The notes under the pieces: model-generated | Database searches by the model: none | The model's input: the letters and a program-made list of their open reading frames with translations, nothing else | Told to the model about the DNA's origin: nothing | Shown: in pieces, positions 872 to 19,595 of the stretch | Layout: every line of letters starts with the position of its first letter | How positions within the stretch are numbered: position 1 is the stretch's first letter | Assembly (NCBI GenBank): GCA_040390045.1 | Contig: JAZJZC010000003.1 | Coordinates: forward strand, 66,115 to 117,668 | Source of the DNA: Patescibacteria group bacterium | GTDB taxonomy: Bacteria; Patescibacteriota; Minisyncoccia; Phycocordibacterales; SIBU01 | Direction: 5' to 3' | DNA length: 51,554 nucleotides | Made by a program: the position numbers and the translations under genes

Positions 872-1140
872 CAACAAACAAGCGAAGCGCCGTTAGCTGT
901 GCGCTCGGAGCAAGCTCTAAACGAGCTTGCGTGGGGAATCGAACAGCGGAGTGTTGTTTTGCGAGCACGCAAAACCGCGAGCTGGTGCTCGACTTATTTT
1001 TATTTATAAAAATAGAAGTCCCCTTGTGGGACAGACAAACCTTTGCGACGGCGAAACTTGAGTCGCGGGCGATTCCAAAAATGGGAAAGGTATACTGTCC
1101 ATGTAATGGAAGATTCCCCCCCCCGAGAAGAGTACTTCTC
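872..1140 (+). repeat. tRNA 3'-flank structured element, Lys copy
   Basis: Linker caacaaacaagcgaagcg. tgtgcgctcgg (898-908) is the exact reverse complement of tRNA 863-873. Inserted hairpin at 909-932. ggggaatcgaac (933-944) is the exact reverse complement of tRNA 851-862. Several internal hairpins follow. gaaaggtatactg (1085-1097) precedes tcca-tgtaa-tgga (1098-1110). A degenerate sense copy agattcccccccccgag lies at 1111-1127. Confidence 0.65.
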
Positions 1141-8514: not shown

Positions 8515-8769
8515 ACGGGCTCTCCGGCCAGACGCTTCGCTATCGAACTCTTTGCAAAGAATCTTCTTTGGCAGGAGTATCTCCCTCGGCAGGAAATCTT
8601 CCGTTACACGGACGGTCTCCTCGTTGAAACTTTATGGCAGGAGTATCTCCCTCGGCTAAAACTTTTCCGTCGAAAAGTTTTGCCTGGGCACCGGCTCGAA
8701 AAATTTTCTGCTGAAAATTTTATACTCCGCCGTTCGATTCCTGCCGGGAGCCACTCTCTGGCGTTCGTG
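8515..8769 (-). repeat. tRNA 3'-flank structured element, Arg(GCG) copy
   Basis: On the + strand, gttcgattcctgccgggagc (8732-8751) is the exact inverted copy of tRNA 8771-8790. The gcggagt box lies at 8724-8730 on the minus strand. The tccg-tgtaa-cgga hairpin (minus strand) lies at 8600-8612. A degenerate sense copy lies at 8578-8600. A 21-nt direct repeat ggcaggagtatctccctcggc occurs at 8570-8590 and 8636-8656. Confidence 0.65.
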
Positions 8770-10604: not shown

Positions 10605-10796
10605 TTTTGTTGCGGAGGAGGTGAGAGTTTCTCCTACAATTTTTTTCGCCGTCGCTCAAAAAATCCTAGGCGCCGGATTTCCGACACTCGCTGGTGCGAG
10701 CGTAGACCGGAAAACCCGTTCGAATCTCCCACGAAAAATCTTTGATTTTTCTTTCCTCTCGCAAATTAAAACCGCCCATAAAGGCGGTTTTATTTG
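10605..10796 (-). repeat. tRNA 3'-flank structured element, Ser copy
   Basis: In minus-strand order: terminator aaaaccgcc-tttatg-ggcggtttt (10769-10792); tgcgagagga (anti-acceptor-like); inserted hairpin gaaaaatc-aaa-gatttttc; gtgggagattcgaacggg (antisense T arm); degenerate tgtaggagaaac box. A 17-nt exact direct copy of the tRNA 3' end lies at 10610-10626. Confidence 0.6.
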
Positions 10797-10883
10797 CGGA
10801 GGAGGTGAGATTCGAACTCACGACACCCTTTCGGATGTGACAGTTTTCAAGACTGTTCCGTTAGACCGCTCCGGCACTCCTCC
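10797..10883 (-). tRNA. tRNA-Ser(TGA)
   Basis: Acceptor GGAGGAG/CTCCTCC, discriminator G, anticodon loop CTTGAAA, long variable arm CACATCCGAAAGGGTGTC, T loop TTCGAAT. 87 nt. Confidence 0.9.
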
Positions 10884-15300: not shown

Positions 15301-15414
15301 AATAAAAAATTCCCGGAAGGGAATTTTTTATTTGGTGCCCGAGAGGAGCCAACGATTTGGCTCCGTGAGGAAATTGGGGTACTGCTTTTGTAAGGGGAGA
15401 TTCGCTCGCGACTC
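15301..15414 (+). repeat. tRNA 3'-flank structured element, Arg(TCT) copy (compact)
   Basis: A 21-bp perfect hairpin (15294-15339) uses the tRNA GGCACCA end. Then come tggtgcccgaga (anti-acceptor), the inserted hairpin ggagccaa-cga-ttggctcc (15347-15365), and gtgaggaaattg. ggggtactg precedes cttt-tgtaa-gggg (15385-15397). The element ends with agattcgctcgcgactc. Confidence 0.6.
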
Positions 15415-15420
15415 AAATTT

Positions 15421-15539
15421 TGCGGTCAGGACTTTTTGTTCGGCCGTCGCCTCACAAAAGTCACGAAAGAAAGACTCGTTGTGGTCAGGAATAATTTTGT
15501 TTTCGTCAAAACAAAATTTTCACGAAGTCTCTCGACACT
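15421..15539 (+). repeat. two tandem degenerate ~59-nt units
   Basis: tgcggtcagga... (15421) and tgtggtcagga... (15480). Each unit contains a hairpin on a TTTTGT/ACAAAA core and ends in tcacgaa(a)g. Confidence 0.5.
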
Positions 15540-15638
15540 CACTACTGTTCGCCTGCCTCGACTGTTTTGTCTGCTGACGAAACATGTCTCAGGCTCGCAC
15601 AAGTCCGAAAAAATCTCCAGTCATGGAGATTTTTTGGC

Positions 15639-15792
15639 TTGTGCGCGCTGAGAGATTTCGAAACTTACAGTTTCAGTACCCGCGATTGGATTTTTTCTAC
15701 GTTCAGAAACTAGAAAAAATGCTCAATCGGGCTTCGAATCTCTCACGGAAGCGTCCCACGCTTCCTAGCGCCACAACTCACTTCGTTCGTTG
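15639..15792 (-). repeat. tRNA 3'-flank structured element, Val copy
   Basis: In minus-strand order: linker caacgaacgaagtgag; tgtggcgct (anti-acceptor); inserted hairpin ggaagcg-tggga-cgcttcc; gtgagagattcgaagccc (antisense T arm); gggtactg followed by aaac-tgtaa-gttt (15661-15681). A 19-nt exact direct copy of the tRNA 3' end lies at 15639-15657. Confidence 0.7.
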
Positions 15793-15866
15793 TGCGCGCT
15801 GAGAGATTCGAACTCCCGACCCTCGCAGTGTAAATGCGATGCTCTAACCAACTGAGCTAAGCGCGC
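15793..15866 (-). tRNA. tRNA-Val(TAC)
   Basis: Acceptor GCGCGCT/AGCGCGC, anticodon stem TCGCA/TGCGA, loop TTTACAC, T arm GGGAG-TTCGAAT-CTCTC, discriminator A. No CCA. Confidence 0.9.
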
Positions 15867-18527: not shown

Positions 18528-18680
18528 CAAACGAGCGAAGCGAGTATGGCCGGGATGTAAGCTCTGGGAGAGCTTACATAAGGACTCGAAGACCTTTGAT
18601 AGTTTTCTGGAGTGTAATCACGAACAGAAAACAGAAAAGGTGTACTGAAACTGTAAGTTTCGAGATTCCTGTCCTAGGCA
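18528..18680 (+). repeat. tRNA 3'-flank structured element, Leu copy
   Basis: Linker caaacgagcgaagcgagta, then tggccggga. Inserted hairpin tgtaagctc-tggga-gagcttaca (18556-18578). taaggactcgaag is the antisense T arm. gaaaaggtgtactg precedes aaac-tgtaa-gttt (18648-18660). Sense copy cgagattcctgtcctaggca at 18661-18680. Confidence 0.7.
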
Positions 18681-18716
18681 ATAACTTTCGTTACTCTAAT
18701 AATTTATTCTACTTTA

Positions 18717-19333: not shown

Positions 19334-19405
19334 GGTGACTATGGTGTAGCGGTAGCACAGTTCCCTGTGGAGGAATAAGTTCGGGTTCAACTCCCGATAG
19401 TCACC
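19334..19405 (+). tRNA. tRNA-His(GTG) with encoded G-1
   Basis: G-1 plus GTGACTA/TAGTCAC, discriminator C, anticodon loop CTGTGGA, T arm TCGGG-TTCAACT-CCCGA. Confidence 0.9.
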
Positions 19406-19595
19406 CACGATAAAAGCGGCGCGAGCCGCTTTTTGAGTGTGTGACTAAGGAAGTCGGCGACCCGACTTCCGGTCGGGAGTTGAAAACCTTCTCCTAAATT
19501 TCTGAGACATTCTCATGACGAAGAAATAGGAAAGGTGTACTGCTCCTGTAAGGAGAAACTCCCGAAAAATTTCGAGGGAAGCTCCCGATAGTCAC
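19406..19595 (+). repeat. tRNA 3'-flank structured element, His copy
   Basis: Terminator aaaagcggc-gcga-gccgcttttt. tgtgacta is the anti-acceptor. Inserted hairpin ggaagtcgg-cgac-ccgacttcc. cgggagttgaaaacc is the antisense T arm. ggaaaggtgtactg (19529-19542) precedes ctcc-tgtaa-ggag (19543-19555). ctcccgatagtcac (19582-19595) is an exact 14-nt direct copy of tRNA 19391-19404. Confidence 0.7.

Follow-up and report, generated by a model that had tools for sequence, protein, structure and literature searches.

The described systems closest to the DNA considered here are the integrative elements of the T-loop class, which use tRNA genes, and CIMEs, the remnants of such elements that lack an integrase. 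In mycobacteriophage Ms6, as the account of its attP and attB sites has it (PMC1762012), a direct repeat extends from the T loop to the 3' end of tRNA-Ala, and the tRNA is restored. The protein-less cassettes that follow about half of the tRNA genes in the genome (G000) of an ultra-small Patescibacteria member share with these elements the direct repeat from T loop to 3' end, the re-supply of the tRNA by the insert, tandem accretion, and small cargo islands with the same ends. They differ in carrying no integrase of their own, in forming one family at 37 different tails, in the size of the insert (only about 130-260 bp), in its obligatory inverted copy of the target and in its conserved, covarying core. 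Elements of the T-loop class have a cognate integrase, in the element or in the genome, and use one attB or a few tRNAs; the complete cassette-rich relatives of G000 have only Xer, and the cassettes are found at 37 isoacceptors.

The CTX-phage attP(+), IMEX and the integron attC site provide a second comparison. The order direct, inverted, loop, direct, as from integration of a folded single strand, is common to them and to the cassette, whose stem consists of two inverted copies of the target, whose folding is strand-specific, and for which Xer is the only tyrosine recombinase at hand. A folded attP is a single strand that rebuilds a duplex target, and so is the cassette in its predicted RNA and DNA folds. 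Unlike these systems, the cassette has a tRNA tail as its target rather than dif or attI, its stem differs at every tRNA, and no integron integrase, conserved R/L boxes, single-stranded replicon or phage carrier has been found for it.

MITEs, REP/BIME/REPIN with RAYT, and the PATEs of IS200/IS605 are, like the cassette, short, non-coding, hairpin-rich and multi-copy, and their number varies among relatives. Unlike them, the cassette resides in a genome (G000) that has no Y1/RAYT or DDE transposase; its ends are copied from the target instead of being fixed terminal repeats, and its duplication, of 17-22 nt or more, is set by tRNA structure. The bridge RNA of IS110/IS1111 is structured, about 150-190 nt long, and carries sequence complementary to its target, as the cassette does, but the cassette has no DEDD recombinase, its complement is a full copy of 20-25 nt rather than split short guides, and it is itself the inserted DNA. 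Tandem inversion duplications, known from work with Salmonella, have a forward-backward-forward geometry. Produced by snap-back at quasi-palindromes, they are like the cassette in that order and in placing junctions at hairpins; they differ in that the cassette junctions have conserved foreign cores and loops, and in that the cassette arrangement recurs as a family. A full-text literature search turned up no description of this family, which is apparently undescribed.

The tRNA genes and their cassettes

The window, that is, the whole stretch of 51,554 nucleotides that was analysed, belongs to a genome of 952,680 bp in 8 contigs, rated 99.9% complete, with 45 tRNA genes, seven of them in the window (ARAGORN and Rfam in agreement). 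A preliminary description had reported exact direct repeats of three tRNA tails, and all three are present where it placed them: TTGTGCGCGCTGAGAGATT at 15639-15657 and 15790-15808 for tRNA-Val(tac) (15792-15866, minus strand), whose last 19 nt plus CAA (15790-15808) constitute the proximal repeat; TTGCGGAGGAGGTGAGA at 10610-10626 and 10794-10810 for tRNA-Ser(tga) (10796-10883, minus strand); and CTCCCGATAGTCAC at 19391-19404 and 19582-19595 for tRNA-His(gtg) (19335-19406, plus strand). Each repeat has two copies in the window, against the 0.00-0.01 expected from 100 dinucleotide-preserving shuffles. One copy of each pair is the segment of the tRNA from T loop to 3' end; the other lies downstream on the tRNA strand, and the DNA between them amounts to 132 bp (Val), 167 bp (Ser) and 177 bp (His).

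Between the two direct copies sits a third, inverted copy of the tail, which the preliminary description had not mentioned: the tail of the tRNA gene is present three times, forward, backward and forward again, and the direct repeats are the outer two copies. The design is present not only at these three but at all seven tRNA genes of the window. Read along the tRNA strand, a turn-around spacer is followed by the inverted tail copy, a conserved folded core and the direct tail copy. The whole can be written as tRNA(1-56)+X, turn-around loop, complement of X, folded core, X, in which X starts in the T loop, at about position 57, and ends 1-4 nt beyond the discriminator. With one complete X behind the tRNA body, the tRNA gene is kept intact. 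The inverted arm is the complement of tRNA positions about 54-76 (CA, discriminator, acceptor 3' strand, T-stem 3' strand and T loop) and is usually split, where acceptor and T stem meet, by a hairpin of about 18 nt; the direct arm corresponds to positions about 57-76 plus CA(A). Might the inverted arm be simply the tRNA's own 5' strands, the cassette being a tRNA copy with an insert? This is ruled out by its complementarity to non-palindromic T loops (Lys and His in the window, Gly-ccc and Leu-caa outside it) and to the discriminator plus C. At sites at which the sense arm and the tRNA mismatch, the inverted arm follows one partner at 15 and the other at 9, with no clear preference.

The cores are of three types, A, B and a third, and all lie in one slot, from the complement of position 54 to position 57. 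Since different cores occupy exactly one slot, it is the arm frame, and not the core, that defines the site. Core A comprises stem P1 (8 bp), hairpin P2, a GGTAC(T)G box that is invariant, and hairpin P3, with 5 bp and TGTAA as its loop. The notion that the core is flanked by a TTCGA target duplication was discarded; it is true only where the last core stem happens to end in TTC.

At tRNA-Val the parts, all on the minus strand, are a spacer (AACGAACGAAGTGAG, 15777-15791) with a motif that also lies behind 13 other isoacceptors; the inverted tail copy (15733-15776), running from the complement of CAA to that of the T loop and holding a 17-nt hairpin between its acceptor and T-stem parts; a type A core (15660-15732) with P1 stem, P2 hairpin, GGTACTG box and P3 hairpin with its TGTAA loop; and the direct ("sense") copy of positions about 57-76 plus CAA (15639-15659), which is the distal repeat and is followed by a hairpin plus T run resembling an intrinsic terminator (15608-15635). 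The His cassette (19407-19595, plus strand) has a terminator-like spacer hairpin (19407-19440), an inverted arm with its hairpin (19441-19484), a type A core (19485-19555) and a direct copy with an extra hairpin (19556-19595). The Ser cassette (10610-10795, minus strand) consists of a spacer hairpin (10763-10795), an inverted arm with hairpin (10719-10762), a core of the third type (10629-10718) and the direct copy (10610-10628). The bracketed DNA had been taken for one family at all three tRNAs: this is so for Val and His, with their type A cores, but Ser has a different core in the same frame.

The other four cassettes vary more. That of Leu(gag) (18529-18681, plus strand) has spacer, inverted arm, type A core and a direct copy with one mismatch and a 2-nt insert. 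At Lys(ttt) (873-1127, plus strand) the spacer and the inverted arm with its hairpin are followed by a type B core, then an A-type 3' box and a partial direct copy. At Arg(gcg) (8570-8768, minus strand) spacer and inverted arm, the latter a hairpin-free 20/20 complement, precede a type B core and a nested A-type piece in a 21-nt duplication. The Arg(tct) cassette (15301-15398, plus strand) is degenerate: a perfectly palindromic spacer/terminator, an inverted arm with hairpin, and only the A-type 3' box. Between it and the Val(tac) cassette, at 15400-15600 of the window, lie minus-strand remnants of a type B cassette (the CATGTTTCGTCAGCAGACAAAACAG hairpin and GAGTCGCGAGCGAATCTCCCC); these overlap the A-type box that the Arg cassette has on the plus strand.

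The CA after the discriminator, which had been noticed as part of the repeated unit, is there in the window tRNAs but is not specific to the repeats. It is a genome-wide trait: the base after the discriminator is C in 45 of the 45 tRNA genes of G000, with CA (mostly CAA) in 30 and CCA in eight. The cassette arms reproduce this genomic CAA and not the mature CCA. That the full CCA is mostly absent suggests an unusual route of 3'-end maturation or CCA completion in this lineage.

Distribution of the family

In G000 at least 24 of the 45 tRNA genes have the cassette frame, as counted with conservative census thresholds. Beyond it, the exact 22-nt core A box occurs in more than 120 contigs of species-representative genomes and in more than 120 metagenome contigs. 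Those with names are nearly all Patescibacteria, mostly of Paceibacteria/Parcubacteria lineages, apart from a few records whose labels are only generic and a single contig (L062) that was binned as Nitrospira. A same-strand tRNA gene lies no more than 450 nt upstream in 179 of 241 distinct public loci, 37 isoacceptors being represented, and in these 179 loci the distance from tRNA end to core box has a median of 124 nt. The direct arm scores a median of 36 against its own tRNA and 13 against other tRNAs, and 79% of the scores exceed the 95th centile of the null.

A covariance model of core A finds from 0 to 41 copies per genome in 41 relatives, 29 of which are positive and 12 without, and has no match, under the strict filters of the run, in a sample of 150 genomes drawn from elsewhere in the phylum. 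With Rfam 15 the cassettes are unmatched at gathering or at permissive thresholds (E up to 5), only the tRNAs being recognised. The core has no match in collections of phages, plasmids and viral contigs, which accordingly offer no vector candidate, and the exact 39-nt tRNA-Val pattern has none in metagenome contigs. Exact-protein look-ups beside tRNA-Val and tRNA-Arg retrieve only Logan contigs, and these end at cassettes. In two Logan contigs (L013 and L014, run SRR26324623) it can be seen that independent assemblies of the organism break exactly at tRNA cassettes, as they would at dispersed repeats.

Traces of probable insertion

Empty and occupied sites can be compared among close relatives. 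In G001, of the same genus, tRNA-Arg(tct) and tRNA-Val(tac) converge 50 nt apart over one terminator and are free of cassettes, so that both sites are empty; in G003 both of these tRNA genes have cassettes. Elsewhere cassettes have accumulated in tandem (L040, L054, L060), the repeated unit being spacer, inverted arm, core and direct arm. One cassette can also be nested in another: the A-type piece with its 21-nt duplication in the Arg(gcg) cassette is missing from the Arg(ccg) paralogue. Near-identical cores with different arms (Val-tac and Gly-ccc, as well as other pairs) show that exchange or homogenisation of cores goes on independently of the arms.

The ends of the cassette do not coincide exactly with those of the tRNA. 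The repeat usually terminates 1-4 nt past the discriminator, and reaches 8-40 nt into trailer and terminator in 13% of cases, most of which are tandem arrays; the inverted copy also takes in trailer bases. At Gly-ccc, Arg-tct, three Ser loci and L047, inverted copy and tRNA end make up an almost perfect palindrome with a loop of 4-5 nt. A conserved spacer motif (CGAACGAAGTGAG-like) begins directly after the tRNA end at 13 isoacceptors, which suggests that what follows the tRNA is element DNA, the native trailer coming only after the distal copy, as it does at Val (15608-15635).

The preliminary description had proposed a search for longer elements with the same ends at other tRNA genes, and such elements exist. 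At tRNA-Gln(ttg), which lies outside the window, tail plus trailer recur 1.47 kb downstream as an exact repeat of 30 nt (G000:C1:216002-217475). This island contains a complete A cassette, a DpnI-like gene of 145 aa, an ORF of 167 aa and the right half of a B cassette. At two further loci (L066 and L035) islands of 1.8-3.4 kb lie between a tRNA-Ser gene and a cassette with matching arm: one holds Shedu SduA and a 469-aa ORF, the other a DUF6671 gene and a zinc-ribbon gene. No recombinase gene occurs in any of the three islands.

How are these observations best accounted for? We lean, with rather modest confidence, towards a non-autonomous, homology-targeted DNA insertion cassette that re-supplies the tRNA 3' end and relies on host enzymes rather than on an integrase of its own. 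The cassette is, then, probably a mobile element and not the scar of an ordinary integrase-borne island. As a selfish element at the level of DNA, it would use its arms to supply homology to the target. The transferred form may be a single strand, of tRNA sense, folded as a dumbbell, with X and anti-X paired as the stem, the spacer as the small loop and the core as the large one. The element would enter and leave where the tail sequence is shared, through recombination or template switching, with RecA, replication or the single Xer, all of them host functions, presumably doing the work. The order direct, loop, inverted, loop, direct is the product that would be expected of integration of such a folded strand, or of snap-back copying. 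Counting against insertion, loop and junction bases are highly conserved throughout a clade at the level of an order, a pattern that a functional RNA would explain equally well.

Folding of the core and the possibility of a functional RNA

The structure of core A is borne out by covariation. In 56 sequences, 94% of the cells are paired (27-57% with slid partners), double-sided changes number 142 (43 in shuffles), and all eight P1 pairs show compensatory change. With 148 sequences the picture is alike. G.T outnumbers A.C in the core stems (138 vs 53), and the tRNA-sense strand is therefore the folding strand. The fold of the Val cassette is much more stable than the folds of shuffles (RNA, z = -4.6; DNA, z = -7.0): the two arms are paired in both, and the arm hairpin makes a three-way junction. 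In the lowest-energy joint fold of tRNA-Val and its cassette, the inverted arm is paired to the 3' end of the tRNA, and the distal copy to the 5' acceptor strand of the tRNA. From sequence alone, a fold of RNA and one of single-stranded DNA are indistinguishable. A mini-hairpin motif of the GCGAAGC type (GAGCGAAGCGAA / CGAACGAAGTGAG) does occur in the terminal loops of type A P2 hairpins and in turn-around spacers (for example at 15777-15791); it is enriched in the cores (14 of 148, with 1.4 expected), yet only 10% of them have it, and as a sign of a DNA fold this stable DNA mini-hairpin is weak.

A functional RNA companion of the tRNA is a serious rival, although on balance we consider it unlikely. 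It would be appended to the tRNA transcript or be separate, its inverted arm pairing with the tRNA 3' end or with its own direct arm, and it might serve as a switch for each tRNA, as a chaperone or decoy for maturation, or as a mimic of a tRNA minihelix. The strong covariation of the core and the invariant bases of loops and junctions speak for it, as do the toleration of G.U pairs on the tRNA-sense strand, the minimum-energy fold in which tRNA-Val pairs with both arms, and the fact that arms track the local tRNA in 37 isoacceptors. The disposition of terminator-like signals bears on it from both sides. A hairpin plus T run lies between tRNA and core in 42% of 174 loci (and after the direct arm in 22%), so that co-transcription is not general; in the 58% of loci that have no such signal before the cassette, co-transcription is possible. 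Several other properties are not those of a tRNA companion: 1) the family is spread in patches, with empty sites in one sister species, between 0 and 41 copies in a genome, and no copy in 12 of the 41 relatives; 2) the arms hold trailer bases that are not tRNA, and their pairing takes in the discriminator and CA, which is not so in a tRNA acceptor end; 3) there are tandem and nested copies, and islands inside the frame; and 4) no Rfam family matches.

Recombinases

The repeats at Val, Ser and His had been interpreted at the outset as footprints of integrase-mediated insertion, and a search of the genome for tyrosine and serine recombinases had been suggested. One of each is found, a Xer-type tyrosine recombinase and a large serine recombinase, but no enzyme dedicated to the cassettes. 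The tyrosine recombinase, the only one in G000, is Xer-like by the XerD/XerC/XerA models and scores 124 bits against the integron integrase model (cut-off 265). The large serine recombinase, of 503 aa, is encoded at L258:463-1974 (G000:C1:150178-151689); its gene runs towards a tRNA-Asn gene (C1:150118-150192) and directly adjoins the 3' end of the latter. No second copy of the tRNA-Asn tail was found. Serine recombinase genes also face a tRNA 3' end or the distal repeat of a cassette at L198, L084 and L163. Y1 transposase (PF01797), reverse transcriptase (RVT_1), IS110 (PF01548), TnpB, rve and DDE_Tnp_1 are all absent from G000.

In nearly all of the 41 relatives there is exactly one Xer. The large serine recombinase was considered as the mobiliser and rejected, its counts over the 41 genomes running opposite to those of the cassettes: genomes free of serine recombinases can be rich in cassettes (41 copies in G031, 21 in G023, 19 in G019, 15 in G036 and 12 in G009), and G013, G016 and G025 have frequent serine recombinases and no cassettes. 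In about 1.5 Mb of cassette-bearing loci, the recombinases come to only five serine enzymes and one tyrosine enzyme other than Xer.

These results weigh on the proposal that the repeats are attL/attR footprints left by a tyrosine or serine integrase, the short DNA between them being what is left of larger islands, decayed or mobilisable in cis. We hold this to be improbable. What stands of it is the geometry, a repeat that spans T loop to 3' end and restores the tRNA, and behaviour that is insertion-like: the empty sites of G001, the tandem arrays, the longer bracketed islands (1.47 kb at Gln, and those with Shedu and DUF6671), and the large serine recombinase genes that abut tRNA 3' ends or cassettes in G000 and in five further loci. 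What does not stand is the enzyme and its specificity. A single family resides at 37 different tails, and no single site-specific integrase explains that; the three islands have no recombinase gene, the single Xer is all that almost every relative can offer, and the serine recombinases are distributed the wrong way. Nor are the inverted copy and the conserved, covarying, structured core explained. The preliminary description had itself named recombinase-free complete genomes that carry the elements as evidence against an integrase, and three complete, cassette-rich relatives (G019, G023 and G009, with 12-21 copies) have one Xer and zero serine recombinases; the integrase interpretation is contradicted by them unless Xer is the enzyme.

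Spontaneous rearrangement of the tandem-inversion-duplication type, by snap-back synthesis at T-arm or trailer hairpins with no dedicated element, has the expected geometry in its favour (forward-backward-forward order, turn-arounds with short loops, perfect palindromes reaching into the trailer), but it is most improbable in view of a second junction that always has one of a few conserved foreign cores, of the conserved spacer motif at many first junctions, and of a design that recurs hundreds of times in one orientation. The conserved cores largely rule it out as the sole cause; it is a possible step in the making of the arms. A retroelement primed by tRNA (with the arms as a PBS-like site) was rejected on two counts: there is no RVT_1, and the arms copy genomic CAA rather than CCA.

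Implications

If the cassettes are mobile, as we favour, DNA is inserted at chosen sites with no enzyme encoded by the element, and the targeted tRNA gene stays intact. This would bear on the tolerance of selfish DNA in streamlined, symbiotic bacteria, and possibly on programmable insertion. One can go a step further and think of a protein-less element that finds the tails of stable-RNA genes purely by its own forward and backward copies, as a folded strand, with host enzymes only and with its arms re-templated at each new site. This stronger version we regard as tentative and somewhat unlikely; if true, it would constitute a naturally programmable, nucleic acid-guided insertion system that dispenses with a dedicated recombinase. 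If, instead, the cassettes are RNAs, about half of the tRNAs of a whole bacterial order have an individual, sequence-matched companion, and that would be a new layer of tRNA biogenesis. The cassettes also account, in these genomes, for assembly breaks at tRNA loci and for att-like tRNA flanks that come without integrases.

Cassettes at other sites

Some cassettes appeared at first to be orphans. Most of these turned out to lie downstream of tRNA genes that ARAGORN had missed, or to be degenerate. L030 and L105 have, upstream of the core box, tRNA-Asn-like genes that ARAGORN does not call, apparently with a large insert in the tRNA body; the direct arms of these two cassettes are degenerate.

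One cassette of G000 has arms that are not derived from tRNA, and it is the only one. At L256 (G000:C2:168740-168900) both arms of a type A cassette match a non-tRNA sequence, GTCCGCCCAGCAAAAAAGC, located just before a terminator. This sequence lies upstream of an assembly gap of 10 N, which the cassette adjoins, and the site has no Rfam or tmRNA match. In the spacer between 16S and tRNA-Ile (L257; G000:C1:322750-323100, minus strand), a partial second copy of tRNA-Ile is situated upstream of the real one. It has a 34-nt hairpin inserted in its D loop and about 165 nt inserted before its T arm, and within the larger insert is a type A core with a duplicated hairpin of 28 nt on its flanks.
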